The notes: generated by a model from the letters alone, not told the origin. DNA of 64,000 nt from Myxococcota bacterium (GCA_039794265.1 JBDIVR010000015.1:33164-97163); one strand, 5' to 3'. Positions 10,876 to 31,877 are shown, counted from the first letter of the stretch. Made by a program: numbers and translations.

Positions 10876-10926
10876 AGGCGCAGCATAGCCGCCGGCACGA
10901 CCGCGACCGGCGGCTCGGAGGGCGTT

Positions 10927-10952: not shown

Positions 10953-10972
10953 GCGGGACGCCTCGCCCCGCG

Positions 10973-11299
10973 TCACTGGACCATGTAGCGCTTCCACTGG
11001 CGGTAGTTGGTCACCGCCTCGCTGGTCCCGGTGTTCGCGGGGTAGTAGAACTTGAGCGCGTAGCCGCACTCCTTGCAGATCTTGTAGGCGAATTTGAAGC
11101 CGTCCACTTCGCGAGTCGATCCGACGATCTCGCGATTCTCGTCGCTACAACATGGCGACGGGCTCGGCGGGGAGACGATCTTCTTCGGGTACTCGTTGCG
11201 CGGCCCCTCCTCGGCCGTGTAGCGGATGATGTTCTTGATGATGCGATGGTTCCTCGCATCGGTGTTCTGCTTGCGGATGTTGCTGCCGATTCTCCTCAA
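10973..11299 (-). CDS. small basic protein with a putative CC...CxxC zinc ribbon, unknown family
   Basis: 108-aa ORF with consistently G/C-ending codons despite a Lys/Asn/Tyr-rich product. Its TTG start forms a TTGA overlap with the NRDE gene stop. The SD GAGGAAGG ends 5 nt upstream. Cys pattern: PCCSDE...X22...CKECGY. Confidence 0.55.
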   Translation of the reverse strand: MRRIGSNIRKQNTDARNHRIIKNIIRYTAEEGPRNEYPKKIVSPPSPSPCCSDENREIVGSTREVDGFKFAYKICKECGYALKFYYPANTGTSEAVTNYRQWKRYMVQ

Positions 11300-12078
11300 C
11301 TCGCCTTCCTCGTCGCCGTCTCCCCCGAGCCGGCCGAGGCCGTGCGCCCCAGCTCTGCCAGGAGAGGAGTGAAATCGTCGTAGGGACTCGTGCAGGGGGG
11401 GCCGTCCGCATGCTCGAGCAGATCGTCGTGGTCCGAGCCCAGTCGCAGCAGCGTCGAGCTACGCGTGCCGTAGCCGCCGCGATGCACGCAGGTGTCGCCA
11501 GTCGCATCGGAATCGTCGCCATGGGTCCGGCACAGCTCTGCCAGCCCGTCTCGAACCGCGCGCGCCGGTCCGCTCGCGACGCGTTCGGCGCGTTCCATCG
11601 TGCGGCGGATCCTGGCAACGGCGCGGTCGTCGGGATCGGCGTTGCCGACGACGTGGACGCCCGGCGCCAGGGAGAGCAGGAGCGGAGCCGTTTCGTATAC
11701 GACCGCGAACGCGTCTTGCGCGTCGGCGAGAAACAGGTTGCAGGGGTTGTACAGGCCCGACTCGAGCGCGGCGGCGCGTTCCGCAGCCTGCCGGGCGGAA
11801 CTCGCTGCGAGCAGATCGACGACGAGCTGGCCGCGCGACCGGCGCGTCGCGTCGAGCTGCGCGGTCGGACGGTTCGTCACGGCCGCAAACACGCCCATCG
11901 GATTGATCCCCCACCAGGTCCCGCCGGCGCGCCGATCGAGCGGCGCGACGATCGGCCCCGAAGGCCCCTCGCGCAGCGCAGGCCCGTCGGCCGGACGGTC
12001 GAGATATTCGTCGCGGTTCGCGGCGACCCAGAGCGGGGCGCCGGCGGCGCAACGGTGGAGGGCGACGAGCGTACACAT
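11296..12078 (-). CDS. NRDE family protein (TANGO2/DUF833-like)
   Basis: I place the start at the ATG at 12078, giving the N-terminus MCTLVAL (Cys2, as in Ntn-type folds). The signature WVAANRDEYLDRP is present. The track ORF extends 39 codons further upstream without support. Confidence 0.8.
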   Translation of the reverse strand: MCTLVALHRCAAGAPLWVAANRDEYLDRPADGPALREGPSGPIVAPLDRRAGGTWWGINPMGVFAAVTNRPTAQLDATRRSRGQLVVDLLAASSARQAAERAAALESGLYNPCNLFLADAQDAFAVVYETAPLLLSLAPGVHVVGNADPDDRAVARIRRTMERAERVASGPARAVRDGLAELCRTHGDDSDATGDTCVHRGGYGTRSSTLLRLGSDHDDLLEHADGPPCTSPYDDFTPLLAELGRTASAGSGETATRKAS

Positions 12079-12189
12079 CACGAGCCTCTCACCCGCACGA
12101 AACGGAACTTTCGGGAGGTCTTCCCGGGAACGCGCTCGGGGGGGCACAGGTGCAGAAGGCGCGCGCAGTGTACCAATGTTCACCCCGGG

Positions 12190-12204
12190 GGGCAAGGGCC
12201 TTGC
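12190..12204 (+). promoter_or_regulatory. orphan sigma-54-like motif (gGGCAAgggccTTGC)
   Basis: GG-N10-GC spacing is correct, with one mismatch in the -24 box. It points into the 3' end of the patatin gene (antisense). Two small hairpins (TTCCG-ggcg-CGGAA and TCCGA-ggac-TCGGA) follow at 12209-12236. Confidence 0.2.
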
Positions 12205-12422
12205 AAAAAGCTTGATTCCGGGCGCGGAATCCGAGGACTCGGATGATGCCGTCAGGGACGCCCAGGGCTTCGCATGGCGAACCAGGAGCGTTCGTCATCG
12301 AGATCCACGACCTCACCCCGCGCCGTGAAGCGGCCGAGACTGAAGTGTTGTCGGGGCAGAGCCCTCATCGATGGCTCCGCTCGCCGACGCTCGCATCTCC
12401 CGGGCGGGACACGCGCGGCCGA

Positions 12423-13796
12423 TCAAGCGCTCTCGGTGCGCACCAACCGCAGCGGCGCTCGCGCGTCGGATTCCGGCGCGGTGCCGCCGTCCTCTCCGGC
12501 CGGCTGCAGCCAGCCGCGCTCGGCCCGCACGCGATCGGCCTTCTTGCGGGCCGCGTCGCGACTCATCTCGAGACCGTAGTGGCCGAGCACGTCGGACACG
12601 GCATCGAAGTTCTGCTCGAGCGTCATGCGCACGGACTCGAAGCCGTGCTGGATCGCGTCAGCGCGCTTCCAGAACGCCAGCGGGTTCACGTTGAAGAACT
12701 CGGCGTCGCGCTCGCGCGGCTCGAGCAGCAGGATGTCGCCCTGGAAACGGTCGTCCGTCAGGTAGCGCTGCAGGCCGAGCTTCAGCCGCGAGTGCAACAG
12801 CGTGCGGAAGACCTGATTGAGAACCACCTTCAGGCCGCGATCGGACAGATAGCGGCCGTTCGCGAAGTAGGGACCGGTTCCGCCCTCGGCGTCGGTCCGG
12901 TTCAGGAACGGGCGGAACGGGTTGTAGCAGATGATCAGGTCTGCCCCCTTCTCGATCGCGACGTCGATACTGGCGGTATGTCGCACACCGCCATCGACGT
13001 AGTCGACGCCGTTGATCCGCGCCGGCTTGTAGAAGAGCGGCAGCGCCGTCGAGGCCTGGACGGCTTGCGCGATCGTCGCGTCGCAGCGCTCATCCGGGCC
13101 GAAGAGCTCGCGCTCGGCGGTATCGAGATCACACGCGGTGATGTACAGCGAGCGGTTGCGCTTGCGCTGGAAGGCGCGGAAGTCGTTGGGCATGCGCATG
13201 CGCTCGAGGTTCCTGCGCAGCCAGTACTCGAGACTGGCGTTGTCGAAGAAACCCGACGGGATGTGATTGGTGAGCGCCGGAATCTCCCGTGTCGGCGAAA
13301 CGTGCTGGAGCAATGCGAGGACGGCCGTCTCGAAGTGCACGTAGCTCGGTGCGCTCACGAAGCGGCGCAACGGAATCCCGACGACCTCGGGCAAGCGCGG
13401 CAGTGCGCGCAGGAAGTCGGCGCTGATCCCGGGCAGGAACGCCAGCAGGTCGTAGCTGAGCTTCGCCGGACGTCCGATGAACTCGCGCCAGTTCGGGTTG
13501 TAGAAATCGGTCGGGCGCAGCTGGTCCATCCGGCGGCTGCGGCCCTCGAGCACGCGGATCATCTCGCTCGGGGAGACGCCGCTGGCGAGTGCGACCGCGA
13601 GGATCGAGCCGGCGGAGAGTCCGACGTACGTGTTGAAGTCGGTGATCTTCCGTCCGACCAGGAAGTCGTCCAGCGCCTTCAGGCCGCCGACCTTGAAGGC
13701 GCCGCCGGAGACCGCACCTCCCGCCAGCACGAGGGCGATCCGCGGATCGCGTTTGGGGCGAGCGCCCCGGCTCTTCCGGATCAGCGTCAGGCCCAC
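12423..13796 (-). CDS. patatin-like phospholipase
   Basis: It has the oxyanion region LAGGAVSGGAFKVGGL, the nucleophile elbow GLSAGS and the catalytic Asp motif VDGGV. The start is uncertain. I chose the GTG at 13796 (VGLTLIRKSRG...) because the upstream 150 codons of the track ORF are Arg-rich and not protein-like. Confidence 0.75.
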   Translation of the reverse strand: MGLTLIRKSRGARPKRDPRIALVLAGGAVSGGAFKVGGLKALDDFLVGRKITDFNTYVGLSAGSILAVALASGVSPSEMIRVLEGRSRRMDQLRPTDFYNPNWREFIGRPAKLSYDLLAFLPGISADFLRALPRLPEVVGIPLRRFVSAPSYVHFETAVLALLQHVSPTREIPALTNHIPSGFFDNASLEYWLRRNLERMRMPNDFRAFQRKRNRSLYITACDLDTAERELFGPDERCDATIAQAVQASTALPLFYKPARINGVDYVDGGVRHTASIDVAIEKGADLIICYNPFRPFLNRTDAEGGTGPYFANGRYLSDRGLKVVLNQVFRTLLHSRLKLGLQRYLTDDRFQGDILLLEPRERDAEFFNVNPLAFWKRADAIQHGFESVRMTLEQNFDAVSDVLGHYGLEMSRDAARKKADRVRAERGWLQPAGEDGGTAPESDARAPLRLVRTESA

Positions 13797-18928: not shown

Positions 18929-20556
18929 CAATGTTCATCTCGAGCCTCGTCTCGCCTGTGTGACGCGCATCACGTGTGCGAGCCTCGCTCTCCCGACACT
19001 CCTCCGCCCCTCGGTCCCGAGGAGCTCCGCCATGACGCGCGTCCTGGGAGCCGTGCTCTCGGGCGTCGACGGCGTTGCCGTCGAGGTCGAGGTCCGGATC
19101 ACCTCGCACCTGCCGCGGATCGACATCGTCGGCCTGCCGGAGGCGGCCGTTCGCGAAAGCGCCGCGCGCGTGCGCGGCGCCATCGCTGCGATCGGCCAGC
19201 CGTTTCCGCGAGGCTGCGTGACGGTGAACCTCGCGCCCGCTTCGGTGCGCAAGAGCGGCGCGGGGCTCGACCTGCCGATCGCGATCGGAATCCTCGCGGC
19301 GGCCGGCGCGGTCGAAGTGGAGTCGCTGTCGCGTCTGGGTCTGGTCGGCGAGCTGGCGCTCGACGGGCGGCTGCGCCCGGTGCGCGGTGCGCTGGCGCTG
19401 ACCCTCGCGTTGCGCGAAGACGGCTGTACACGCGTCGTCGTGCCGCGAGCGAACGGCGGAGAAGCCGCGCTGACCCCGCGGGTCGAGGTCCTCGCCGCGG
19501 ATGATCTCGGCGCGCTGCTGCGGTTCCTGCTGATCGGGCGAGGCCTGACCCCCGTGCCGCCGCCGAAGCTCCTCGCGAGCTCTACACGACCGAGCGTCGG
19601 AGATCTCGCCGAGGTCAGGGGTCAGGAGCGCGCGAAGCGCGCGCTCGAGATCACCGCCGCCGGCGGCCACGGACTGTTGCTCGAGGGTCCGCCGGGGTCC
19701 GGCAAGACGATGCTCGCGCGCCGACTTCCGGGCCTGCTCCCTCCGCTCCGATTCGAGGAGGCCGTCGAAGCAACGCGCATCCATGGCGCCGCCGGCCGGC
19801 TCGGAGAAGAACCGATCGTTCGCGAGCGACCGTTCCGCGCACCGCACCACGCGGCAAGTCGGGCCGGTCTGCTCGGGGGCGGCTCGCCCCCGCGACCGGG
19901 AGAGATCTCGCTCGCACATCGCGGCGTGCTGTTCCTCGACGAGCTCCCCGAGTTCGACCGAGGCGTGCTCGAATCGCTCCGGCAAGTGCTCGAGGATCGC
20001 CGCGTCGTGGTGGCGCGAGCGGGTGGCACCTGTGTCTTCCCGGCAGACTTCCAACTCGTCGCCGCCGCCAACCCGTGTCCGTGCGGCTGGCGGCTCTCGC
20101 GTTGGCGCGAATGCAGCTGCACCGACGCCCTCGTGCGTCGCTATCGCGCGCGCGTGTCGGGTCCGCTGCTCGACCGCATCGATCTCCACGTCTCGGTCCC
20201 AGCCGTGGATTGGCAGGCTCTCGATTCGGGTCCGGTCGGAGAACCGAGCGACGTGCTGCGCGCTCGCGTCGCGGCGGCACGGGCGCGCCAACGCGAGCGC
20301 CTCTCGTTCGTCGGTGCGCGCTGCAATGCGGAGATCCCAGACCGCTCGCTGGACGCCGCCGTCGCGGCCACGCCCGACGCGCGCACGCTGCTCGGACGCG
20401 CCGTCGAGCGACTGCGTCTGTCCGCGCGTGCCGCTCACCGCTGTCTGCGGACGGCGCGCACCGTGGCCGATCTCGCCGAGGAGGAGCGCGTCGGCCCGGT
20501 GGCACTCGCGGAGGCGCTCTCCTATCGCCGCGGGGAGGCCGACGTCGAAGGAGGCG

Positions 20557-22407
<1,851 letters not shown>

Positions 22408-22831
22408 GCGGAGTCCTCTCGGCCCTGGATCCCTCGCGGGGAATCGGCGGGCGCGGCTCGCGAGTCCGAGATCATAGAACGCGGGCGCCGGCAGGCCATC
22501 GAACGCGGGCCTTCGGGCGCCACGGCCCAGAGGAAGGCGAGGAGGTGGCACTCCGTCTCGAAGACACTGCGCCCGGTCGCAAGCGGCTCGGCTCGAATCT
22601 CCCCCGGCTTCACGTCGTGACTTCGCCGATCGTGGCCCGATCCCGATGGTTTCTGCCGAGGAGGAAGCCCAGCACTCGTGCCCCACCGCTCGTACCGGAG
22701 ACGTCGTTCGAAGCAGCGAGACGCCGTGCTCCCCGACAGACCGGAGGCCCGCGCGTTCCTCGGCCCGCCGCGCTGCCGATCGCGATGCGATAGCCTCGCG
22801 AGGCCATCTGACCCCGGCAGGAGGAATCTTC

Positions 22832-23095
22832 GTGCTTTCGATCGGCAAGCTCATCCTGGCGGTCGTATGGATCGCCTCGGCGCGCGCCTTCTTCCTGCCG
22901 GAAACGGCGCCCTGGGCGTCGACCGGCCGCCTGCTGTTCGGCGCGCTGCTCGCGGTCCACGCGATCGAGACGGTCGTGTTCCTGCCGCGGCTGCGAGCCG
23001 CCGGCGGATCGCTGGCCAACCACGTGGTCCAGACGCTCCTCTTCGGACTGCTCCACGTCGGTCCGCTCCGGAACGAAGCCCCGGGTCGCGGATAG
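22832..23095 (+). CDS. small membrane protein, DUF1145-like
   Basis: The GTG at 22832 is preceded by the SD CAGGAGGA with a 7-nt spacer. The 87-aa product [21 protein letters not shown]...[16 protein letters not shown]...LLFGLLHV resembles DUF1145. The family call comes from memory of that pattern. Confidence 0.5.
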
Positions 23096-23160
23096 TCCGC
23101 GACCCCGCTTCCATCGTCTCGGTTCGCGGGATCGACTCGGCCGAGCCAACCGCACCGACG

Positions 23161-23376
23161 TCAGTCGAGGTCGCGGTCCGCGGCCTCGGCGGTGTTCTCG
23201 ATCACGTCGCCGGCCCCCTTTGCCGCCGTACTCGCTGCGCCGCCTGCCGCCTCCGCGGTGTCGCCGACCGCATCGCCGAGCGAGCGCCCGGCCGTCCCGA
23301 CCGTCCGGCAGCCCGAAGCGCCGATGGCGAGCGCGGCCACGAGAGCCATCGATCCCTCGAGCCAAATAGAACGCAT
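23161..23376 (-). CDS. small lipoprotein, unknown function
   Basis: The ATG at 23376 has the SD AGGAGG 8 nt upstream. The product is 71 aa with signal and lipobox MALVAALAIGASGC, followed by an Ala/Gly/Asp-rich disordered tail. Confidence 0.55.
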   Translation of the reverse strand: MRSIWLEGSMALVAALAIGASGCRTVGTAGRSLGDAVGDTAEAAGGAASTAAKGAGDVIENTAEAADRDLD

Positions 23377-23495
23377 GATGAAAACCTCCTGTTGAACGCT
23401 GTCCGATGCTTGCGATTGCACGACCGGCTCCCGGCGCGATGGCGGAACGGGCGGTTGGCGCTCCCGTGCCGCCATCGCGCGTGGCTCGTCCGCTG

Positions 23496-23663
23496 TTAGA
23501 CCGCGGGGCGACGACGGCCCGCAACCAGCGAGACGACGAAGAGCACCAGGAATACGACGAACAGGATCTTCGCGATCCCCGTCGCGGCGCCGGCGATTCC
23601 GGTCAATCCGAGCAGTCCTGCGATCAGCGCGATCACCAGGAACGTAAGGGCCCATTGCAACAT
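23496..23663 (-). CDS. DUF1328/UPF0391 family small membrane protein (not in the supplied ORF track, 55 aa)
   Basis: My own translation is [55 protein letters not shown]. The SD GGAGA lies 7 nt upstream. The N-terminal pattern is typical of the UPF0391 family. Confidence 0.7.
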
Positions 23664-23735
23664 GTACGTTTCTCCAAGCTGACGCGCCGCAGCGCGCCGT
23701 GCGGTTGCCTTCCGCCTGCTTCGATCGTGAGCGAT

Positions 23736-23750
23736 GCGAGTTTCGTGCCA
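23736..23750 (-). promoter_or_regulatory. sigma-54 type -24/-12 promoter (TGGCACgaaacTCGC)
   Basis: The minus strand reads TTGGCACGAAACTCGCA with correct GG-N10-GC spacing. Predicted TSS is ~23724, 61 nt before the DUF1328 ATG. Confidence 0.5.
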
Positions 23751-23753
23751 ATT

Positions 23754-24149
23754 TCAGGCCTCGTTCCCGATCCGTGACGGTCCTCGTTCCCCGTGTCCCC
23801 GGGTCCCGAGCGCAAACCAACCGAGCCCCGCAAGCGCCAACGCGAAGAGGATCCCCGCGAGCGCCTCGAGCAGCGAGCGGATGCCGTACGCGAAGGTGTC
23901 CGCTGCCATCTGCACCGCCACGAACAGCACGAAGATCACGAGGGCCGCGCGGCCGAGCGCTCGCATCTCGTGCCACAACGCGATCGCCGCGATCGGCGCC
24001 GCCAGGCCCTGCCCCACGAGGGCGAGCAGGCCGACGAGCGGGACGCTCGAGGCGATCACCGCCATCCCCAAACTCTCCCACAGGCGCCAGACCGCGACCA
24101 GCGCGAATACGAGAGCCATCACCCGACACCACGTCATTCCGTTGGGCAT
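23754..24149 (-). CDS. hypothetical integral membrane protein (about 4 TM segments)
   Basis: The ATG at 24149 has the SD GAGGGG 7 nt upstream. The product is hydrophobic (MALVFALVAVW..., VPLVGLLALVGQGLAAPIAAIALW, ALVIFVLFVAVQ, LAGILFALALAGLGWFAL). I recognise no family. Confidence 0.5.
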   Translation of the reverse strand: MPNGMTWCRVMALVFALVAVWRLWESLGMAVIASSVPLVGLLALVGQGLAAPIAAIALWHEMRALGRAALVIFVLFVAVQMAADTFAYGIRSLLEALAGILFALALAGLGWFALGTRGHGERGPSRIGNEA

Positions 24150-24219
24150 GCATCGACCCCTCGACAAGAGTGGACTCCGATGCGGACGGATCCGCCGAAG
24201 TCGGGCTCGCCGCTACGAA

Positions 24220-24251
24220 CAGCGCAGCCCGGCCTCCGCCGGGCTGCGCTG
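24220..24251 (-). terminator. hairpin after the BON gene (14-bp perfect stem, 4-nt loop)
   Basis: The minus strand reads CAGCGCAGCCCGGC-ggag-GCCGGGCTGCGCTG followed by TTCGTAG. It lies 40 nt downstream of the BON gene stop. The U-tract is weak. Confidence 0.4.
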
Positions 24252-24290
24252 GCTCTCCCTATCTGTGCGCGCCACCCGCGACGCGCGAGA

Positions 24291-25349
24291 TCAGTCGCTC
24301 TCGACCTGGAGTTCGCCGGTCACGCCACGCACACCTTGCGTCGTGCGCGCGAGCGTCAGCGCACTGATCCGGTCGGCCTGGCTGTCGACCTTGCCGCTGA
24401 GCCGTACGGTGCCGTTCTCGACCTGCACGTCGATGTCGGCATCCGCGAGGCTCGACCGCTCCTCGAAGCGTTTCGCCAGCGCCGCAGCGATCTCTTCGTC
24501 CTTTCTTGCAGTCGCGACCTGCTGAGCCGGTGCCACGACCTGCAGCTCGTTGCGCACCGCCTTCACGCCGTCGAGACTCTTGACGGTCTCCTCCGCGTTG
24601 CTGCGGGCTTCGTCGGTCCCGACGGTGCCGAACAGCGTGACGATCCCATTCACCGTATCCACGTTGATGTCGAAGGCGGGCGCATCCGCCGCGACCAGCT
24701 TGACCTTCGCTGCCGTGGTGATCCACGCGTCCTCGATCGTTGCGCGCATCCCGGCGGCCGCCCCGACCGGCGGCGTGGTCGACTCGTCGCGCCACAGCTC
24801 GGCGTCGGCCAGCTCGTCGGGACTGGTGATCTGGCTCGATACGCTGCGGACGCCGGACACGCCGCGTGCCGCCGCGAGAGCATCCACATGCGCGCTCAGC
24901 GTCTCCGCCTTGCCCCCGAGCACGACGACGCCGCGGTTCACCGATACGACCTCGACGCCCTGCAGCGCCGGATTCCCGTCGAGAGCCTCCTGGATCCGCT
25001 TCGTCACGTCCTCGTCGGCCGCCTCGACCGCCTCGCTCGCGCTCGCCGGCACGATCTGGATCAGATTGCGCACCTCGCGCACCCCGTCGATCCCACGCGC
25101 GACCTGCTCGGCCTTCGCCTGCTCCGCGGCGGTCGGCACCTGACCGTGGAGCGTCACGCGCCCGTCGAGGGTGTCGACGTTCACATCGAGCGGATTCACG
25201 CCTTCTGCCGTCAGCAGCGCGACCTTCACCTTGGCCGTGATCCACGGATCCGGCATGTCCGCCGCGAGCGCGGTTCCGCTCGCGGAGGCCACCATCGCCA
25301 CCGCCGCGAGCGCGGATCGGAGCTTCGTACGCCATGTCGCTGTGTTCAT
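24291..25349 (-). CDS. periplasmic protein with four BON domains (OsmY-like)
   Basis: I place the start at the ATG at 25349 (MNTATWRTKLRSALAAVAMVASASGTALA, a signal peptide). There are four repeats of the type ...DVNVDTLDGRVTLHGQV...A..A..GV..V.N.L.V. Confidence 0.85.
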   Translation of the reverse strand: MNTATWRTKLRSALAAVAMVASASGTALAADMPDPWITAKVKVALLTAEGVNPLDVNVDTLDGRVTLHGQVPTAAEQAKAEQVARGIDGVREVRNLIQIVPASASEAVEAADEDVTKRIQEALDGNPALQGVEVVSVNRGVVVLGGKAETLSAHVDALAAARGVSGVRSVSSQITSPDELADAELWRDESTTPPVGAAAGMRATIEDAWITTAAKVKLVAADAPAFDINVDTVNGIVTLFGTVGTDEARSNAEETVKSLDGVKAVRNELQVVAPAQQVATARKDEEIAAALAKRFEERSSLADADIDVQVENGTVRLSGKVDSQADRISALTLARTTQGVRGVTGELQVESD

Positions 25350-25438
25350 CTGTCTTCCTCTCGTGTTGCGCCGCGAGCGGTGGGTCTCACCGAAGCAGCG
25401 CGTTGGGATGACCAGGGCTCTTCCAGAACGAGCCCGGT

Positions 25439-26104
25439 TCATCCGGTCTTCTCTTCCGCGCTCGACCAAAGACGAACGGCCTCCGCGCCGGTCGCCGAAG
25501 GCCGTACGGCTCGATCGAGGTTGCGGAGCACGAAATCCCAGTCGATCAGATGATCGATGACGGCTTCGACGTAGCGATCGCGCTCGCTCTGCACGTCGAG
25601 GTAGTACGCGTGTTCCCAGACATCGATGGTGAGGAGCGGCGTCAGCCCCTCACGGAGAGGGTTGTCGGCGTCGTGCGTGGCGGTGACGCAGAGCCGCTCC
25701 TGCTCGTCGACGACGAGCCACGCCCAGCCGGAGCCGAAATGACTACTCGCAGCTTCTGCCAGACGCCTTTGGAGATTCCCGAAACCGCTGAACGACGCTT
25801 CGAGGAGCGCCAGCAGCGTTCCCGCGGGCTTCCCGCCCCCGCCGCTTCGCAACCCTCTCCAGTAGAAGTCGTGGTTCCAGATCTGGGCGGCCAGCTGGTA
25901 GACCTCGCCGTCGGCCGCGCGGACCAGCCCTTCGAGCGTGGTTGCGGAACGCGAGCGCTCGTCGAGTACCGCGTTGAGCTTCTCGACGTAGCCGCGATGA
26001 TGCTTCTCGTAGTGGAACTCGACGGTTCGCGCGCTGATCCAGGGCGCGAGCGCATCCTTCGCATAGGGCAGAGGCTTCAACTCGAAGTTGCGGACTGACG
26101 ACAT
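25439..26104 (-). CDS. sodB: Fe-type superoxide dismutase
   Basis: 221 aa. Motifs present are FHYEKHH, AAQIWNHDFYW, FGSGWAWLV and DVWEHAYYLD. Confidence 0.9.
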   Translation of the reverse strand: MSSVRNFELKPLPYAKDALAPWISARTVEFHYEKHHRGYVEKLNAVLDERSRSATTLEGLVRAADGEVYQLAAQIWNHDFYWRGLRSGGGGKPAGTLLALLEASFSGFGNLQRRLAEAASSHFGSGWAWLVVDEQERLCVTATHDADNPLREGLTPLLTIDVWEHAYYLDVQSERDRYVEAVIDHLIDWDFVLRNLDRAVRPSATGAEAVRLWSSAEEKTG

Positions 26105-26158
26105 TCAGCGCCCCCCCCTCATCGCCGGCGATACCCGGCCTCTCGGCGGTAAGTGTTT

Positions 26159-26173
26159 GCAAGGCGTGTGCCG
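26159..26173 (-). promoter_or_regulatory. sigma-54 type -24/-12 promoter (cGGCACacgccTTGC)
   Basis: The minus strand reads CCGGCACACGCCTTGCAAA, an exact GGCAC-N5-TTGCA. Predicted TSS is ~26147, 43 nt before the sodB ATG. Confidence 0.55.
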
Positions 26174-26267
26174 GCGAATACGCGCCCGGGGGGCGCGCGG
26201 ACCATGCTGGACACCCGGCCGGGACGGCAGGGCCGGTCTGCGACGGGATCGGACACGCTCATGTGTG

Positions 26268-26280
26268 TGTAGGATCTACA
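26268..26280. promoter_or_regulatory. perfect palindrome TGTAG-GAT-CTACA in the sodB / AI-2E divergent spacer
   Basis: It is an AT-rich palindrome in ~70% GC DNA. It is centred ~100 bp upstream of the sodB -24 element. The minus strand reads TTTTGTAGATCC, related to the TTGTAGAAA 9-mers at 27582 and 29841. Confidence 0.3.
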
Positions 26281-26515
26281 AAAGCCCCTGGACCTCGATC
26301 TCCTGCTTCCATTGCTTCGGCGGAAGGGCTGAGAAGCCGGCGGCACGTCCCGTGCATTCCCTCCGTCACGCCCCCATCGATTCGAGTCGGGTCGACGCGA
26401 ACGAACGGGAGAGAGAACCCTGACCACCACGCCGAGTCCCGAACCGTCGCCGCTCGCAGGCCTGGACCCGTCGGCCGAACCGAGGGCGCGTTCGCTCGCG
26501 ACGATCGGCATCTTC

Positions 26516-27514
26516 GTGCTGCTGTGCTTCTACACGGCGTACTTCGCGCGTACGCTGCTGCTACCGATCGTTCTCGCAATCCTCGCGAGTCTCATCCTGC
26601 GGCCCTTCGTCGCAGCCATCCGGCGCGTGGGCATCCCGCCGGTCCTGGGCGCGGCGCTGGTCATGGGCGCCCTGATCGGCTCGGGGGCCTACGGCGTGGT
26701 GACCCTCGCGGAGCCCGCTGCAAAGTGGCTGGAGCGCGCGCCCTCCAGCGCGCGCCTGATCCAGCAGAAGCTCCGTTTCGTTCGCGAGCCCATCGAGCGC
26801 ATGAGCGATGCGACGAAGGAGGTCGAGGAAGCCGCACGGATCGACAACGAGGATCGCGAGCGTTCTGTCGTGGTGCGCCCGCCGCCGCTGTCGGACGCGA
26901 TCCTGAGTCACGCCCAGGGTCTCGTCGCGGGTGCGCTGATGAGCTTGATCTTGCTCTTCTTCCTGTTGGCGACGCCGGATCGGCTGCTCACGAAAGTCAT
27001 TGCGATGGCGCCGAGGCTCGGCGACAAGAAGCTGGTGGTGGCGGCCGTGCGGGAGGTCGAAGTGGAGATCTCGCGCTACCTACTGACGGTCAGCGCCATC
27101 AACGTCGGTCTCGGTGTCGCCGTCGGCGCGGCGATGCTTGCACTCGGGCTGCCGAACGCCCCGTTGTGGGGTGTCCTCGCAGCCATCGCGAACTTCGTAC
27201 CCTACGCCGGAGCGGCGTCGATGACGCTGGTGATCGGCGCAGTCGGCGTGGTGAGCTTCGACCAGCCCGTCGAGATGTTGACGCCGGCCGCCGTATTCCT
27301 CGCGCTCACGTCGATCGAGGCGTACATGGTGACACCGGCGGTTCTCGGCCGTCGCCTGACACTGAGCCGCGTAGCCGTGTTCCTGTCGATCGTCGCCTGG
27401 TCTTGGCTTTGGGGAATCCCGGGGGCACTGATCGCCGTGCCGGTGCTCGCGGCGACGAAAATCGCCGCGAAGCACCTGCCAGGCCTCGAGCCGGTGGCGC
27501 AGCTCCTCGACTAG
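26516..27514 (+). CDS. AI-2E family transporter (PerM/UPF0118)
   Basis: 332-aa polytopic ORF with a GTG start. The family-typical C-terminal half reads LLTVSAINVGLGVAVG...LWGVLAAIANFVPYAGA...LWGIPGALIAVPVLA. Confidence 0.85.
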   Translation: MLLCFYTAYFARTLLLPIVLAILASLILRPFVAAIRRVGIPPVLGAALVMGALIGSGAYGVVTLAEPAAKWLERAPSSARLIQQKLRFVREPIERMSDATKEVEEAARIDNEDRERSVVVRPPPLSDAILSHAQGLVAGALMSLILLFFLLATPDRLLTKVIAMAPRLGDKKLVVAAVREVEVEISRYLLTVSAINVGLGVAVGAAMLALGLPNAPLWGVLAAIANFVPYAGAASMTLVIGAVGVVSFDQPVEMLTPAAVFLALTSIEAYMVTPAVLGRRLTLSRVAVFLSIVAWSWLWGIPGALIAVPVLAATKIAAKHLPGLEPVAQLLD

Positions 27515-27637
27515 TCGCGCCTTCATCCGGGCGAATCCCGTGCCCTTTGCTCGTCGGAAAGCGGTCGACTCGGTGCGTCTCTTGTAGAAAGCGCCGTGCG
27601 AGCAGACGGAAGCTCGCCGCTCCGTCGCTCCCGGTGC

Positions 27638-27652
27638 TGGTACGGCCCTTGC
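27638..27652 (+). promoter_or_regulatory. sigma-54 type -24/-12 promoter (TGGTACggcccTTGC)
   Basis: GG is at 27639-27640 and GC at 27651-27652. Predicted TSS is ~27664, 96 nt before the ATG at 27760. Confidence 0.5.
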
Positions 27653-27759
27653 TTACCCCTCCTGCCAGACTCACGGCTCGGAAAACGCGCCCCGCGACGA
27701 GCGTCGGTCCGTAGAGCCGCGCATCGTTCGACATCGAACGGGCGAGACCAGGAGGAATC

Positions 27760-27954
27760 ATGGCCGAGCAGATACACGCGGACATCGGTCCCACGGTAGG
27801 CGAACGCGCGTCGGAGGCACGCGATCATCTACGCGATCGCGCGCAGGAAACGGATCACCTCGTGCGGGAGTTCGCGATGGAACATCCCTTCCTCGCCGTC
27901 GGCGGGGCACTGGCCGCCGGCTTCTTCCTCGCGCGGCTGATCGCGAAGCGGTAG
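27760..27954 (+). CDS. DUF883/ElaB-YqjD-like tail-anchored stress protein (short form)
   Basis: The ATG is preceded by the SD CAGGAGGA. The 64-aa product has a charged helical N-part and the C-terminal anchor HPFLAVGGALAAGFFLARLI. Confidence 0.6.
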   Translation: MAEQIHADIGPTVGERASEARDHLRDRAQETDHLVREFAMEHPFLAVGGALAAGFFLARLIAKR

Positions 27955-27957
27955 CCC

Positions 27958-28332
27958 ATGGTGGACACGAGACACAACCAGGAAGAAGCACACACCGGCG
28001 CGGACGATCGGGAGGAGGAGAAGGATGCGAGCACCGAGAACCTCCAGAAGGAGTTCCGACGAGCGCGCGAGGACACTGCGGCCGTCGTCGAGGATCTGCG
28101 CGGGCTGCGGGAGGAGCTTGCTGCGCTGCTCCGCGACCGGCTGCGGAGTCAGCCTTACTTGACCGTCGGCGCGAGCGCCGGGATCGGCTACGTGCTCGGC
28201 GGAGGGCTGCCGAAGGGCGCACCGACGCTGGCGCTGGGATTGGCAACGCGAATGGCCGCAGGCTGGCTGATGCGCGAAATCGGTGGAGCTGGCTTCGCGC
28301 GGGACTCGAGCCCGACCGAGGAGGAGCTGTGA
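27958..28332 (+). CDS. DUF883-like membrane-anchored protein
   Basis: It starts 3 nt after the previous stop. The 124-aa product has an acidic N-terminus, a helical segment EDLRGLREELAALLRDRL, and then PYLTVGASAGIGYVLGGGL. Confidence 0.5.
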   Translation: MVDTRHNQEEAHTGADDREEEKDASTENLQKEFRRAREDTAAVVEDLRGLREELAALLRDRLRSQPYLTVGASAGIGYVLGGGLPKGAPTLALGLATRMAAGWLMREIGGAGFARDSSPTEEEL

Positions 28333-28733
28333 TGGATCTCGGACAACTCACGGACAGACTTCCCGACCGGGACACCGTCCGCCACGGGCTGGAGCGCCTG
28401 GCAGGCAGCTTGCCTTCGCGCGACGCGGTGCGCGCTCGGACTCCGGATCTCCCTGCCGCTGCGCGACGCTGGTTGCCGGGCCAGCGCAAGCCCGCGTGGA
28501 GCGATGCGCTGACCGCACGCAATCTGGCGATCTTCGGCGTCGGCATGGCGCTGGGTGCTGGCCTGGCCGCCGTGCTGACCCCGCGCTCCGGGCCCGCGTT
28601 GCGCCGCGATCTGATCGATCGGATCCGACGACTGCGGGAGGCGGGGAGCGGCGCGGCAAGCGTTCCGCCCGCGCGCCGCGCCACACGCCACGACGGCAAT
28701 GGTACCGGGATCCGACCCGACCTCAGCCACTAG
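28329..28733 (+). CDS. YtxH-like protein
   Basis: Its start overlaps the previous stop (GTGATG; GTG at 28329 or ATG at 28332). The segment FGVGMALGAGLAAVLTPRSGPALRRDL fits the YtxH GxxxGxxxG...AP.SG..R pattern. Confidence 0.5.
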   Translation: MMDLGQLTDRLPDRDTVRHGLERLAGSLPSRDAVRARTPDLPAAARRWLPGQRKPAWSDALTARNLAIFGVGMALGAGLAAVLTPRSGPALRRDLIDRIRRLREAGSGAASVPPARRATRHDGNGTGIRPDLSH

Positions 28734-28762
28734 AAAAAACGTCACGGGAAACGCCGTCGTCA

Positions 28763-28777
28763 TGGCATGTTCCCTGC
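28763..28777 (+). promoter_or_regulatory. sigma-54 type -24/-12 promoter (TGGCATgttccCTGC)
   Basis: GG is at 28764-28765 and GC at 28776-28777. Predicted TSS is ~28789, 87 nt before the csbD ATG. It is flanked by two copies of AACGTCACG (28738-28746 and 28779-28787). Confidence 0.45.
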
Positions 28778-28875
28778 AAACGTCACGCGCAACGGCTTGG
28801 CAGCGCGTCGCGAGTCACGACGGCACCGCCGCATCTCGATCCCGGGAACGGCACGCCATCCGCGAAGGAGACCTG

Positions 28876-29073
28876 ATGAATTGGGATCGCATCGAAGGAA
28901 ACTGGAAGCAGTTCGTCGGCAAGGCTCGACAGAAGTGGGCCGATCTCACCGACGATGACCTGGAGACCCTGAAGGGGAAGAAGGACGAGCTGGTCGGCAA
29001 GCTTCAGGTACGCAAGGGAATCGCGCGCGAGGAGGCCGAGCGCGAAGTCGACGAGTGGTCGAAGAGCCTCTGA
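28876..29073 (+). CDS. csbD: CsbD family stress protein
   Basis: The ATG at 28876 has the SD GAAGGAG. The 65-aa product is MNWDRIEGNWKQFVGKARQKWADLTDDDLETLKGKKDELVGKLQVRKGIAREEAEREVDEW. Confidence 0.85.
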   Translation: MNWDRIEGNWKQFVGKARQKWADLTDDDLETLKGKKDELVGKLQVRKGIAREEAEREVDEWSKSL

Positions 29074-29176
29074 AGCGGTCGCGTCGCGGGGCCGCTGCTG
29101 CGAGAGAGGTCGGCAGCGGACCCGCCAGGACCGCCAGCGCGGTCCGCGGCTTTCCGAATCCCGTCGATCCTCGCCA

Positions 29177-29404
29177 TCATCGATCGCTCTCGTGCTTCCA
29201 TCCGAGTGCGAAGCCGATCACCAGAGCACCGACCACGCACCACGCGAGTCGCTCGCGGACGACCCGTCGAGGCGACATCGTGCTCTTGACCGTGCGCTCG
29301 AGGTTGCGCAACGAGCGCGCCAGATACGCCTCGGATCGCAGCCATGCGCGCTCGATTCTCTGTCGTTCCAGTGCGGCGTGACTTTTCGAGACGCCCTGGG
29401 TCAT
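29177..29404 (-). CDS. small tail-anchored protein, YqjK-like by position
   Basis: 75 aa. Its start forms an ATGA overlap with the upstream DUF1469-like gene. The N-part is helical and Arg-rich and the C-terminal TM is LAWCVVGALVIGFALGW. Confidence 0.45.
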   Translation of the reverse strand: MTQGVSKSHAALERQRIERAWLRSEAYLARSLRNLERTVKSTMSPRRVVRERLAWCVVGALVIGFALGWKHESDR

Positions 29405-29751
29405 GACGACGGCTCTTCTTCCGGATCGAGACGACTCCGTCCGAATGCCCAGACCGCACCCCCGAGAACGCCATGCGCCCCAGCCACCCACGCAGCGGCG
29501 GCAACGGCTCCGAAGTGCAGCCCCACCCACCACGCGACCGCTCCGACGGCGGACCACCAGAAGATGGCCGCGACGAAGCCGGCAAAGGTCGCGGCGAAGA
29601 GCACGAGAGTCCCCGCCTGGAGACCTTGCGCCACGGCGTCGCCCGCCTCGAGTCGCGCGAGGGCCACGCCGCGAGTGGCCACGTCGTGTGCGGACTGGAG
29701 CACCTCGTCGAACGCGTCGGCGATCGATTCGCCCGGAACCCGATCGTTCAT
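29401..29751 (-). CDS. DUF1469 / holin-X (YqjE-like) membrane protein
   Basis: I place the start at the ATG at 29751 (MNDRVPGES...). The 116-aa product reads ...LARLEAGDAVAQGLQAGTLVLFAATFAGFVAAIFWWSAVGAVAWWVGLHFGAVAAAAWVAGAHGVLGG. Confidence 0.6.
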   Translation of the reverse strand: MNDRVPGESIADAFDEVLQSAHDVATRGVALARLEAGDAVAQGLQAGTLVLFAATFAGFVAAIFWWSAVGAVAWWVGLHFGAVAAAAWVAGAHGVLGGAVWAFGRSRLDPEEEPSS

Positions 29752-29765
29752 GCACAGGAGCAGGA

Positions 29766-29780
29766 GCAAGCTCCGTGCCG
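29766..29780 (-). promoter_or_regulatory. sigma-54 type -24/-12 promoter (cGGCACggagcTTGC)
   Basis: The minus strand reads CCGGCACGGAGCTTGCTCC, an exact GGCAC-N5-TTGC. Predicted TSS is ~29754, only ~3 nt before the ATG at 29751, so the mRNA would be leaderless. Confidence 0.4.
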
Positions 29781-29918
29781 GAGGCAATGGCCGCGCATGC
29801 GCGTCTCTACGCGCATCACCGCCGAGGTGGGCCGCGAGTTTTGTAGAAACGCGGTCCCTGCCTCGATCCAGCCTGGGACATCGAGAGGCCCGCGTTCCCC
29901 TGTGGCGCAGACCTCCCG

Positions 29919-29933
29919 TGGCACATCGCTTGC
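29919..29933 (+). promoter_or_regulatory. sigma-54 type -24/-12 promoter (TGGCACatcgcTTGC, full consensus)
   Basis: The sequence GTGGCACATCGCTTGCAG is an exact TGGCAC-N5-TTGCA. Predicted TSS is ~29945, 69 nt before the ATG at 30014. Confidence 0.6.
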
Positions 29934-30013
29934 AGACCCTGTCCGCTGCGTACCGCACGCGCGCGCGATTCCGCTCGAGGAAGCGATGCGGGAACGCAAC
30001 AACTGGAGAGACG

Positions 30014-30187
30014 ATGAACAAGATGCAACGTGCGCTCGCCGCCGGATTCTGCTCGGTCGTATTCGTCGGAGCTGCCCTGGGAGGCGTCGCATGCGACCGC
30101 CAGGAGGGCCCGCTCGAGGAGATGGGGGAGAGCCTCGACGATGCAGCCGATGAGGTCGAAGACTCCGTCGACGACGCCACGCGATAG
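30014..30187 (+). CDS. small acidic lipoprotein
   Basis: The ATG at 30014 has the SD GGAGAG. The 57-aa product has signal and lipobox AAGFCSVVFVGAALGGVAC, followed by an acidic tail. Confidence 0.55.
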   Translation: MNKMQRALAAGFCSVVFVGAALGGVACDRQEGPLEEMGESLDDAADEVEDSVDDATR

Positions 30188-30227
30188 ACGTTCCGGGACG
30201 CGTTCCGAACGCAGAGGAGAGAACAGC

Positions 30228-30539
30228 ATGAACGGCGGCAACATGTTCCCGATCCTTTCGCTGCGGTTTCCCGCAAATCGGTCGAACCAGGGATTCAGTC
30301 CTGCCGTCGCCGCCGCGATCCAACCGCCGGCGGCGGAAGCGAATCAGGATCTGGCGTGGCTGCTGCGCCGCTCGCTCGACGGCGCGCGCGGCAACCCGAA
30401 GATCCGCGAACGCCTCCAGCAGCTGGCGCAGGACGCCGACAGCGTCGATGCCATCGTCCAGATACTGGGATCGCGACACGCTGTCGTGCGAGACCTGTCC
30501 CATCTCCTGCAGCGGCCCGAGTCCGGTCCGCGCGCCTGA
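30228..30539 (+). CDS. hypothetical protein
   Basis: The ATG at 30228 has the SD GAGGAGA 7 nt upstream. The product is 103 aa with mostly G/C-ending codons. I recognise no family. Confidence 0.4.
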   Translation: MNGGNMFPILSLRFPANRSNQGFSPAVAAAIQPPAAEANQDLAWLLRRSLDGARGNPKIRERLQQLAQDADSVDAIVQILGSRHAVVRDLSHLLQRPESGPRA

Positions 30540-30640
30540 CGCCCTCGAGGAGTCGAGGGCATGCCGACCCGAACTCGACGCACACGCAATCGAGTAGACA
30601 TCACCCCGATCGCATCAGGGCCCGAGCGGCCGCGATCCGG

Positions 30641-31180
30641 CTACTCGCGCTCTTGCGCCAGGCTCTCGACGAACGTGACCAGATGGCGGACCTCGTCGAC
30701 CGACAGCGTCTCGCTCCACCCCTGCATCGCCTCGGACCCGCCGAACGCGCCCGGACCGACGAGGATCACGCGGGCCAGGTCGCTCGCCTCCCCGGTCTCG
30801 TTGTTGTCGTTGGCATCGATGTAGAATCTGCCTTCCGTGAAGTCGCGAGGCTTGGGATCGAGAGCGCTGGCCGCGGGGCCATTGCCCGTGCCATCCGCAC
30901 CATGGCAAGCCGAGCAGTGGAGCGCGAACAAGGCGCTCCCCTGCTCGAGATCTCCTCCCTGCCAATCGACTCGCGTGAGCTGCCGAGCGAACGCGAGCGC
31001 CGTTGCAGGCGACACATCGGCTGGCGAGACCGCCTCTGCCGACGCGCTGATCGAAGCGCCGGCGCCGCCTCGGCCGTCGGATCCCGGCCTCGAGGCCTCC
31101 GGCTCCCCCGCATCCGAGCACGCGACGACGACGGCCAGGATCGCGGCGCGCGGGAGCCGAGCAACGAGTAGCGAGGCCAT
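30641..31180 (-). CDS. mono-haem c-type cytochrome lipoprotein
   Basis: I place the start at the ATG at 31180 (MASLLVARLPRAAILAVVVAC, a good lipobox). It has the haem motif CSACHG and a distal Met region (SEAMQGW). Confidence 0.75.
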   Translation of the reverse strand: MASLLVARLPRAAILAVVVACSDAGEPEASRPGSDGRGGAGASISASAEAVSPADVSPATALAFARQLTRVDWQGGDLEQGSALFALHCSACHGADGTGNGPAASALDPKPRDFTEGRFYIDANDNNETGEASDLARVILVGPGAFGGSEAMQGWSETLSVDEVRHLVTFVESLAQERE

Positions 31181-31225
31181 GCGGGCTCCGATCCGGTTCG
31201 TTTCGCCTGGGAGCTGGATTGTTCT

Positions 31226-31240
31226 GCAATCCCCGTGCCG
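31226..31240 (-). promoter_or_regulatory. sigma-54 type -24/-12 promoter (cGGCACggggaTTGC)
   Basis: The minus strand reads GCGGCACGGGGATTGCAG, an exact GGCAC-N5-TTGCA. Predicted TSS is ~31214, 34 nt before the cytochrome ATG. Confidence 0.55.
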
Positions 31241-31352
31241 CAGATGCGCCCGGGCGACTTGCTCACGGATCGTTCCGCCGACGTTGTCTACCCTCGCGTC
31301 GCCTGCGATTCGCGGGGGCAATCCAGGCACGAGTGAGGACGGTCGGGGTCCC

Positions 31353-31877
31353 ATGCTCGACCCGGCGCACTTCGTGATCGGCTCGGATGACGTCCACGCC
31401 TGCGTCGGATCCGACCGTGTGCGCGATCCCCGACGGGTCGCCGCAGGGATCTCGGAGCTGGACGCGGACGTCGTCGGACCGCAGGAAGTGGACTCGCGAT
31501 CTCCGGGCAGCGATGGCCCCTGCCGACTCGCCGTCCGGATGCGGGAAGCCGGGTTCGTCTGGACCGACGGCCCCACCATGCAGCGCGCGGACGGCCGCGA
31601 CCTGGCCGTGCTGCCCGGAGACTTCAACGAATGGTGGGTAGCCGGTCGGCTGCTGCGCCGACTCCACCGCGCGCCCGGGCGGACGCGCGGCGTGCGCAGC
31701 TTCCCGGCGCGGGCGCCGCTGTCCCCCGTGGACCGGATCTGCGTGAAGCCCGCCCGCGTCGTCCGCGAGATCCGCGCCCATCGCAGTGCGCTCGCCCGCC
31801 GGGCCTCCGATCATCTTCCGGTGACGGCGCGGATCGAGATCTCGCCGAGGAGTTCGCCGACTCAGCGGACGTCGTAG
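31353..31877 (+). pseudogene. endonuclease/exonuclease/phosphatase (EEP) family remnant with an apparent in-frame internal deletion
   Basis: 174 aa. The N-part is ...DDVHACVGSD...LDADVVGPQEVD and the C-part is ...LPGDFNEW...RASDHLPV. The central ~80-90 aa found in ~250-aa family members is absent, and the N-terminal N-x-H motif is changed to DDVH. Confidence 0.45.

Follow-up and report, generated by a model that had tools for sequence, protein, structure and literature searches.

The general stress response has known master regulators in the Gammaproteobacteria (RpoS), the Firmicutes (SigB) and the Alphaproteobacteria (EcfG), but not in the Myxococcota or in most uncultivated lineages. These regulons operate through sigma-factor competition or a partner-switching cascade, and homologues of the genes treated below are RpoS-dependent in Escherichia coli (osmY, elaB, yqjD/E/K) or SigB-dependent in Bacillus subtilis (csbD, ytxH). 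Here we describe a 9-kb island of about 16 small genes in a 64-kb stretch of DNA from a Myxococcota bacterium (GCA_039794265.1, JBDIVR010000015.1:33164-97163; hereafter the window, with positions counted from its first letter), in which nearly all genes and short operons come with a predicted sigma-54 promoter of their own.

A sigma-54-dependent stress system has been described in Desulfovibrio vulgaris, where DVU3303-3305 form a 'three-component system for general stress responses' (PMC3333781, PMC4641369). Its response regulator DVU3305, a sigma-54 enhancer-binding protein (EBP), is encoded alongside a kinase and another response regulator; the system is autoregulated and controls adjacent genes for membrane, hypothetical and Usp-type proteins that are induced by several stresses (PMC3333781, PMC4641369).

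The island is, we argue, probably part of a sigma-54/EBP regulon of small envelope and stress proteins which is controlled by a regulatory cassette in relatives and which has lost that regulator in the variant present in the window. Such a regulon would be conserved across an uncultivated Myxococcota clade and would comprise DUF1328, multi-BON (OsmY-like), Fe-superoxide dismutase (SOD), CsbD, DUF883/YqjD-type, YqjE-type and YtxH-like proteins, together with small lipoproteins and a cytochrome c.

Predicted sigma-54 promoters of the island

An earlier note on this DNA had claimed seven -24/-12 motifs in the island and another at 7372, and all of them read exactly as it quoted them. In each of the seven (P1-P7, Table 1) GG and GC lie exactly 10 nt apart within a TGGCAC-N5-TTGCW consensus, and they score 12.9-18.2 bits with a matrix that we made as an approximation of the textbook consensus TGGCACG-N4-TTGCW and scanned over both strands. 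The excess of exact GGCAC-N5-TTGC that the note had estimated was borne out in this window of ~70% G+C, with five matches found against 0.45 expected and none of 100 shuffles reaching five.

The matrix scan, which the note had proposed for the genome and which we ran on the 64-kb window, gave the same picture. The seven island sites and the site at 7372 are the eight best matches of the window and all eight are intergenic, while intergenic DNA makes up 11.6% of the window in a gene map based on G+C content at third codon positions. At a threshold of at least 12.5 bits there are eight matches in the window compared with 1.39 in 200 dinucleotide shuffles (maximum 4). Per 100 kb, the matches number 75 for the island and 1.8 for the remaining window; the controls, unrelated high-GC metagenome contigs totalling 270 kb (loci from a metagenome scan with the SOD protein), have 6.7 per 100 kb, i.e., the island is enriched 40-fold over the remaining window and about 11-fold over the control contigs. 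Each of the seven sites points into the next gene, as had been claimed, with leaders of 3-96 nt when the start is set 12 nt past the C of GC and the length is read from the sequence. P1 begins 4 nt past the stop codon of the upstream gene, and a crude consensus scan of the island found no sigma-70 promoter.

Eight related loci were retrieved with the BON protein and the EBP, and these allowed the orthologous spacers to be compared, a further check suggested in the note. The -24/-12 blocks are kept in relatives while the neighbouring leader or upstream DNA diverges. Orthologous, high-scoring matrix sites stand upstream of the genes for DUF1328, SOD, CsbD, the small lipoprotein and cytochrome c, with positions kept in loci L003, L006 and L014. 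P1 is kept in all three next to a diverged leader, and P2 has orthologues in L003, L006, L011, L012 and L014. P3 corresponds to TGGTACGCCCCTTGCT in L014, P6 to TGGCACATCGTTTGCA in L003 (score 19.4) and P7 to GGGTACGACGTTTGCA upstream of the L003 cytochrome c gene, while P4 is kept in L003 as TGGCACGTGTCCTGCA despite unrelated upstream DNA there. Matrix sites were also found at SOD, BON, DUF1328 and other small genes in L008, L009, L011 and L012, where BON identity is only 55-60%. Further sites in relatives precede the kinase operon of the cassette, a 57-aa DUF1328 paralogue, DUF3309, other BON proteins, Cu/Zn-SOD and SRPBCC proteins. The scores of all seven island promoters are as good as those of the orthologous promoters in relatives that carry the cassette. 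We consider the promoter wiring strongly supported and the seven elements genuine sigma-54 promoters, with sigma-54 dependence itself a prediction from their sequence.

Two observations concern the leaders. The yqjE-like gene starts 12-13 nt past the end of its sigma-54 promoter both in the window (29749-29780, -) and in L014 (3621-3651, -), and since this promoter-to-ATG spacing is kept although the promoters differ in sequence and context, it points to a conserved, nearly leaderless mRNA with a leader of 2-3 nt. The DUF1328 leader (23664-23734, -) contains a block, GGCAACCGCACGGCGCGCTGCGGCGCG, which is identical in the window and L006, differs by one base in L003 and is not kept in L014; the sequence just past the DUF1328 promoter differs among the window, L006 and L003.

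A candidate activator in related loci

In six related loci (L003, L006, L008, L011, L012/L013 and L014; BON identity 55-91%) the genes for SOD and/or BON lie directly beside a cassette encoding a histidine kinase, a receiver-only response regulator and an NtrC-type activator, i.e., an EBP. In the matrix scan of the relatives this cassette carries its own upstream sigma-54 promoter, and a PAS hybrid kinase and an AI-2E transporter often flank its other side. The EBP gene lies at 5011-6399 in L006 and at 9394-10782 in L014, and cassette-bearing assemblies include GCA_041750895.1 and GCA_973363985.1. The EBP has receiver, Sigma54_activat and HTH_8 domains, with the motifs GAFTGA or GSFTGA and a GESGTGKE Walker A motif. 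Its nearest NCBIfam models are AtoC, NtrC and ZraR (E ~1e-117 to 1e-96), and it falls below every equivalog cut-off tested (AtoC, NtrC, ZraR, PspF, LuxO and FlbD), the best being AtoC at 390.7 bits against a cut-off of 714, with ZraR at 323 against 760. As no equivalog cut-off is reached, the protein would belong to an uncharacterised subfamily; the nearest solved structures are those of LuxO and NtrC-family proteins. The L014 kinase has two transmembrane helices ~9 residues apart and looks like the intramembrane-sensing type, and the L008 kinase has a larger periplasmic domain.

The earlier note had suggested that RpoN and an EBP encoded outside the window run a general-stress-like regulon. 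The window does lack an EBP, as judged from the absence of a GAFTGA motif and of a tblastn match, and the promoters behave as sigma-54 promoters. Synteny in the six loci has now identified a likely cognate EBP, a strong candidate that is reached through relatives; in the window itself its cassette is cleanly deleted, which the note had not foreseen. The gene at 18960-20600 was considered as the missing EBP and ruled out, being a ComM/Mg-chelatase-type ATPase with only a partial Sigma54_activat match. The closest homologues of the EBP, P0128 (87%) and P0174 (90%, partial), come from other assemblies, the P0128 locus having its own BON gene, and neither locus gives a location for an EBP in the source genome.

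A second common element, TTGTAGA

A second common element, TTGTAGA (extended form TTTGTAGAwnnnACA), was first seen between divergent promoter pairs and lies 53-118 nt upstream of many predicted sigma-54 promoters. In an unbiased count of 7-mers between -20 and -140 of 37 predicted promoter regions it ranks first, occurring in 14 of the 37 (p ~5e-16), and there are 25 copies in about 183 kb. The window has six copies, compared with 0.44 expected, and the only three that are intergenic are all in the island, one for P2, one for P3 and one for the divergent pair P5/P6, with 56-108 nt between each copy and the -24 element. TTGTAGA was found within 150 nt of four of the seven island matrix matches and 16 of 34 in relatives, and of none of the 18 in control contigs.

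The copy near P2 is a palindrome, TGTAGATCCTACA, and gives the best match in the window of a matrix built from the relatives only. When the DNA upstream of SOD was aligned for six loci (49% mean column identity), the invariant parts were TTGTAGA, an ACA four bases on and parts of the promoter. We take TTGTAGA as a putative activator binding site, or enhancer, for the EBP, a link that is deduced, since its position suits an enhancer better than an integration host factor (IHF) site or a -10 element. The latter two were ruled out: TTGTAGA would make a poor -10 or extended -10 element of a sigma-70 promoter, its hexamer TAGAnn seldom having T at the end, and it does not match the IHF consensus WATCAANNNNTTR and is located too far upstream for such a site.

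The element is also conserved in the leader of the kinase operon, as TGTAGA(A/T)TC, in five loci; it follows the sigma-54 promoter of that operon by ~110-140 nt and precedes the start codon of the kinase gene by 30-40 nt, with a degenerate form in L008 (Table 1). There it might act as an enhancer from downstream or serve autorepression.

In the model that we propose, a self-activated 'three-component' cassette inside the island of relatives (membrane histidine kinase, receiver-only response regulator and receiver/AAA+/HTH_8 EBP) would control the regulon. On a stress signal the kinase would phosphorylate the activator, which would then bind TTGTAGA-type sites (TGTAG-N3-CTACA in the best copies) located some 80-145 nt ahead of the transcription start and, using ATP, open closed sigma-54 holoenzyme complexes. 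Both the nature of the stress signal and the current activity of the regulon are presumed here.

Deletion of the regulatory cassette

Compared with L014, which has essentially the gene set of the window plus the cassette, the window is ~6.1 kb shorter. Window positions 26282-27656 align to L014 4998-3633 and 23505-26099 to L014 13801-11238, which places the deletion junction at 26281/26282, between L014 sides at ~4963-5038 and from 11108 onward. On the minus strand the junction reads ...GGTCCAGGGGCTT|TTGTAGATCCTACAC..., with the end of the PAS kinase gene on the left and the SOD enhancer-like site on the right, and it bears a short CTT/TTT microhomology. The junction alignment implies that the PAS hybrid kinase, the histidine kinase, the response regulator, the EBP and the 57-aa DUF1328 paralogue with its promoter were lost. 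The SOD promoter and its TTGTAGA site survive the deletion, and all target promoters, the three enhancer-like sites and all 16 open reading frames (ORFs) of the island are intact.

With the cassette excised and the targets intact, the targets would either depend on a copy or paralogue acting in trans from elsewhere or form a recently orphaned, silent regulon. Continued activity is suggested by the intact promoters and ORFs and by L009, which has a trans arrangement of the same architecture.

Just past the stop codon of the PAS kinase remnant and upstream of AI-2E there is a weak sigma-54-like site, CGGCACGTCCCGTGCA (26341-26356, +; 10.1 bits), whose spacing is kept in L014 and not in L006; with low confidence, it may be an eighth promoter, for AI-2E.

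Weighing the alternatives

The alternative that survives best, although we hold it to be on the unlikely side, is that the regulon is orphaned, the cassette having no replacement and the seven promoters being silent relics of a recent deletion and the island heading to decay. The ~6.1-kb deletion took all four regulatory genes, no EBP is left anywhere in the window, and the island belongs to the flexible genome, where lineage-specific losses are seen elsewhere (L003). However, the seven promoters score as well as those of cassette-bearing relatives and the 16 ORFs are intact, and L009 has a BON gene, likewise equipped with this promoter and TTGTAGA, at more than 10 kb from any EBP, which makes control in trans a normal arrangement in the clade. 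Moreover, Myxococcota usually encode dozens of EBPs, and 64 kb of this genome was seen.

Less favoured again, and in our view improbable, is the explanation that the sigma-54 promoters are real but answer to several EBPs and signals, the modules merely clustering in a flexible island. It would account for TTGTAGA being found only at P2, P3, P5 and P6, for the independent shuffling of modules between relatives, and for the csbD promoter that L003 keeps beside completely different upstream DNA. Against this, the same families with sigma-54 promoters recur beside the same EBP cassette in distant relatives, one enhancer may serve several nearby promoters, and EBPs can act from sites within neighbouring genes or downstream, as the position of the kinase-operon motif suggests.

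Finally, it is very improbable that GG-N10-GC marks chance matches or sites of another factor, such as an extracytoplasmic function (ECF) sigma factor or a repressor: the sigma-54 assignment is made on sequence alone, GG-N10-GC by itself is very common in 70% GC DNA and one comparable match lies inside the GH15 coding region of the related locus L096, but here the full TGGCAC-N5-TTGCW is matched with the 40-fold and about 11-fold enrichments given above, the matches are exclusively intergenic, correctly oriented and kept at 55% protein identity, and the sites are physically coupled to the gene of an EBP with the GAFTGA loop, which has no known contact other than sigma-54.

Several points weigh against a single sigma-54 regulon whose regulator has been lost from the window. 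The cognate EBP is absent from the island and from the whole window, and no rpoN gene was found when its RpoN box was looked for in the 64 kb. P1 (DUF1328), P4 (csbD) and P7 (cytochrome c) have no clear TTGTAGA, and with the element at only four of the seven promoters a single regulon is not proven for all of them; the motif in the kinase operon, lying downstream of its promoter, could equally reflect repression or a different binding protein. The matrix only approximates the published consensus, and sigma-54 dependence is predicted from promoter sequence. Part of the conservation reflects shared ancestry, given the 74-86% nucleotide identity among the window, L003, L006 and L014. The deletion is seen in a single assembled contig: the 24-nt junction had no exact match in metagenome contigs, leaving the deletion without independent confirmation, and Logan contigs with the BON and SOD proteins of the window were short and did not reach the junction. 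Because the cassette is deleted, the window cannot show whether the organism still runs the regulon. Several of the 'stress' family assignments also score below Pfam cut-offs. We nevertheless regard the regulon of small envelope and stress proteins, cassette-controlled in relatives and with its regulator lost here, as the probable reading.

Genes and genomic setting of the island

The features of the island are collected in Table 1. The gene families named in the earlier note held for part of the set: Pfam confirms DUF1328, 4xBON, Fe/Mn-SOD, AI-2E, CsbD and cytochrome c, whereas DUF883_C, YtxH, the YqjE-type family and DUF1145 are sub-threshold and the second DUF883-like, the YqjK-like and the two small lipoprotein assignments are unsupported. 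The same sub-threshold DUF883_C match is given by the 64-aa orthologue in L014, and the same weak PF07332 match by the L014 YqjE-type orthologue. For the 4xBON protein 445 homologues were found. The label 'general stress' derives only from the homology of some of these products to RpoS- or SigB-dependent proteins.

Table 1 Predicted and annotated features of the island; positions refer to the window unless a related locus is named
Feature	Position	Strand	Details
Strain-variable island	22534-31869		replaces ~2-kb MFS+Usp between GH15 and 2-hydroxyacid dehydrogenase genes
P1, predicted sigma-54 promoter	23735-23750	-	TGGCACGAAACTCGCA; score 16.5; DUF1328 gene; ~61-nt leader
P2, predicted sigma-54 promoter	26158-26173	-	CGGCACACGCCTTGCA; score 12.9; SOD, probably also BON and 131-aa gene; ~43-nt leader
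P3, predicted sigma-54 promoter	27638-27653	+	TGGTACGGCCCTTGCT; score 15.8; DUF883 / DUF883-like / YtxH operon; ~96-nt leader
P4, predicted sigma-54 promoter	28763-28778	+	TGGCATGTTCCCTGCA; score 17.3; csbD; ~87-nt leader
P5, predicted sigma-54 promoter	29765-29780	-	CGGCACGGAGCTTGCT; score 14.0; yqjE/yqjK-like genes; ~3-nt leader, nearly leaderless mRNA
P6, predicted sigma-54 promoter	29919-29934	+	TGGCACATCGCTTGCA; score 18.2, best of the window; lipoprotein gene, probably also 103-aa gene; ~69-nt leader
P7, predicted sigma-54 promoter	31225-31240	-	CGGCACGGGGATTGCA; score 14.2; cytochrome c gene; ~34-nt leader
Candidate enhancer	26268-26281	-	TTGTAGATCCTACA; palindrome TGTAG-N3-CTACA; 108 nt upstream of P2; TTGTAGA at 26275-26281
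Candidate enhancer	27582-27588	+	TTGTAGA; 56 nt upstream of P3; same relative position in L014
Candidate enhancer	29841-29847	+	TTGTAGA; between divergent P5 (67 nt) and P6 (78 nt); L003 orthologous site at -79
Kinase-leader TGTAGA(A/T)TC	L003 5896, L006 3571, L014 7928, L011 5869, L012 5848		
Degenerate kinase-leader element	L008 6233		CTAGAATCGAG; about 50 nt past promoter, 15 nt before start codon
Weakly DUF1145-like membrane protein, 87 aa	22832-23095	+	Pfam E 0.01, below cut-off; 87-aa orthologue in L006, L007
Small lipoprotein-like protein, 71 aa	23161-23376	-	ORF; lipobox ...GASGC; orthologues in L003, L006, L014; no Pfam match
DUF1328 small membrane protein, 55 aa	23496-23663	-	PF07043 E 2.6e-16; 96% identical to L003 orthologue
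Multi-pass membrane protein, 131 aa	23754-24149	-	ORF; no Pfam match; 72% identical to L003 orthologue
Periplasmic 4xBON (OsmY-like) protein, 352 aa	24291-25349	-	Pfam BON, four stretches, E 9.5e-62
Fe/Mn superoxide dismutase, 221 aa	25439-26104	-	Pfam Sod_Fe_N and Sod_Fe_C
PAS hybrid kinase remnant	26282-26332	+	last ~16 codons (~50 bp) and stop; local alignments to L014, L006
AI-2E family transporter, 332 aa	26516-27514	+	PF01594 E 2.4e-43; adjoins PAS hybrid kinase gene in L012, L014
DUF883 (ElaB/YqjD-type) protein, C-tail-anchored, 64 aa	27760-27954	+	DUF883_C E 3.5e-5, 23.8 bits vs cut-off 27
124-aa protein, 'DUF883-like' in the earlier note	27958-28332	+	ORF; no Pfam support; 123-aa orthologue in L014
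YtxH-like protein, 134 aa	28329-28733	+	Pfam YtxH E 7.2e-5, 23.6 bits vs cut-off 37.5; L014 orthologue also weak
CsbD-like protein, 65 aa	28876-29073	+	PF05532 E 3.3e-16; 91% identical to L003 orthologue
75-aa membrane-anchored protein, 'YqjK-like' in the earlier note	29177-29404	-	ORF; no Pfam support; 77-aa neighbour at same place in L014
YqjE-type membrane protein, 116 aa	29401-29751	-	PF07332 (formerly DUF1469) E 3.5e-6, 27.5 bits vs cut-off 28.4
Acidic small lipoprotein, 57 aa	30014-30187	+	ORF; no Pfam support; 74% identical to 56-aa L003 orthologue
103-aa protein	30228-30539	+	no Pfam match; 52% identical to 103-aa L003 gene; missed in the earlier note
c-type cytochrome lipoprotein, 179 aa	30641-31180	-	CSACH haem motif; Pfam Cytochrom_C E 7e-9; 60% identical to L003 orthologue

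The boundaries of the island were set by blastn against L096 (GCA_048499615.1), in which the backbone is 82-86% identical up to window position 22533 and resumes from 31870, the DNA between corresponding to L096 2315-4335 (MFS+Usp). Another complete genome of related Myxococcota is GCA_027493655.1. The backbone order in related genomes is ComM, GH15, [MFS, Usp], 2-hydroxyacid dehydrogenase, MMPL, leucyl-tRNA synthetase and cytochrome oxidase, collinear with the window, whose leucyl-tRNA synthetase is 86% identical to that of a 'Myxococcota bacterium'. As MFS and Usp occupy the same slot in related genomes, the island is part of the flexible genome. Pfam scans of the window proteins found no integrase or transposase, and the G+C content of the island (0.67-0.69) is not atypical beside that of adjoining DNA (0.68-0.70). 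An Rfam search of the whole window, made with no dedicated tRNA scan, gave no match. At its right edge the island has an Exo_endo_phos ORF of 174 aa with a partial Pfam match (31353-31877, +); this ORF shares sequence with the 3' end of the dehydrogenase gene, which it overlaps, and may be a gene remnant marking the boundary.

The content of the island varies between relatives: the yqjE/K-like, DUF883 and YtxH genes are gone from L003, as is most of AI-2E, and this locus has extra modules for Cu/Zn-SOD, SRPBCC and MgtE, some with the same promoter type. A scan of genome contigs with the BON protein found one weak Burkholderiales match and no close relative, and the metagenome scan with the SOD protein returned mostly generic Fe-SODs with no more than 57% identity.

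The left part of the window (561-13796; MutS2, amine oxidase, melibiase-HAD, FolC, TANGO2-like and patatin genes) is syntenic with L009 1-13545. Between the amine oxidase and MutS2 genes L009 carries a 4xBON gene with the same sigma-54 promoter and TTGTAGA, which indicates that the BON module sits at different chromosomal sites in different lineages. Also in this left part is the fifth-best sigma-54 match of the window, TGGCACCGCCCTTGCT (7372-7387, +), followed by ~150 nt that fold strongly (7372-7545, +; -76.3 kcal/mol, z = -5.1). The fold includes the long hairpin GCGCCCGGACTGGCA...TGCCAGTCCGGGCGC and has no Rfam match. Promoter and hairpin are both kept at the syntenic spot of the distant L009 (4400-4660, -), where the GH20 gene is missing, and together they may represent a small RNA that depends on sigma-54, or else a separate unit.

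Elsewhere in the window, 49692-52085 (-) holds a gene for a GAF domain and PEP-utilising enzyme of the PtsP (EI-Ntr) type; the nitrogen phosphotransferase system is often functionally linked to rpoN.

Comparison with known systems

For the lineages that lack a known master regulator, the island and the related loci offer a concrete candidate in the form of an EBP subfamily, a putative enhancer motif and about 20 families of small effectors, of which DUF1328, DUF883, CsbD and BON are poorly understood. The cassette-deleted window is in addition a natural experiment on a regulon that lost its activator. A wider claim, which we regard as doubtful at present, is that the general stress response of this clade is run by sigma-54 and a dedicated three-component EBP acting through TTGTAGA, and not by a factor of the RpoS, SigB or EcfG type, with effector modules of 'enhancer plus -24/-12' shuffled in the island and the window as a regulator-deletion variant. 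The interest of the system would be considerably greater if the regulon were indeed the general stress pathway of the clade. We found no relevant papers tying sigma-54 to CsbD, BON, DUF883, DUF1328 or YtxH, or to stress or SOD genes of Myxococcus.

The regulons of RpoS, SigB and EcfG share overlapping effector families with the island (OsmY/BON, CsbD and SOD and, at sub-threshold Pfam scores, DUF883, YqjE and YtxH). The difference lies in the control, which here is by predicted sigma-54 with an ATP-dependent activator, all-or-none and enhancer-dependent. Since sigma-54 promoters are silent without an activator, this wiring of stress effectors implies switch-like control with very low leak, unlike sigma-factor competition.

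The Psp (PspF) and Zra (ZraSR-ZraP) systems resemble the island in the EBP-activated, sigma-54-dependent expression of small membrane and periplasmic stress proteins. However, Pfam scans found no PspA or ZraP homologues among the island targets, and the Myxococcota EBP has a receiver domain, unlike PspF, and stays below the cut-offs of both the PspF and ZraR models.

In function, the island comes closest to these envelope stress systems and above all to DVU3303-3305. Compared by description, that system is a partial precedent, as there too a response regulator that is a sigma-54 EBP is encoded together with a kinase and one more response regulator. The second response regulator has a Lon protease domain in that system and is a bare receiver in the Myxococcota cassette, and the targets are UspA-type there compared with BON, SOD, CsbD, DUF883 and DUF1328 here.

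The architecture is also like that of NtrBC, AtoSC and ZraSR in E. coli and relatives, with -24/-12 promoters, an activator of receiver, AAA+ (GAFTGA) and HTH_8 domains encoded beside its kinase and targets and, by prediction here, autoregulation and an inverted-repeat-like enhancer some 80-145 nt ahead of the transcription start. It differs in that the targets are many separate small stress-type genes with their own promoters, and not one or two metabolic or chaperone operons, and in that the cassette of the relatives adds a receiver-only response regulator and a PAS hybrid kinase. Mechanistically, then, this appears to be an ordinary NtrC-family two-component sigma-54 regulon, and what is new is the EBP subfamily, the TTGTAGA element, a target set drawn largely from families that belong to RpoS or SigB elsewhere, and the layout of one promoter per small gene.

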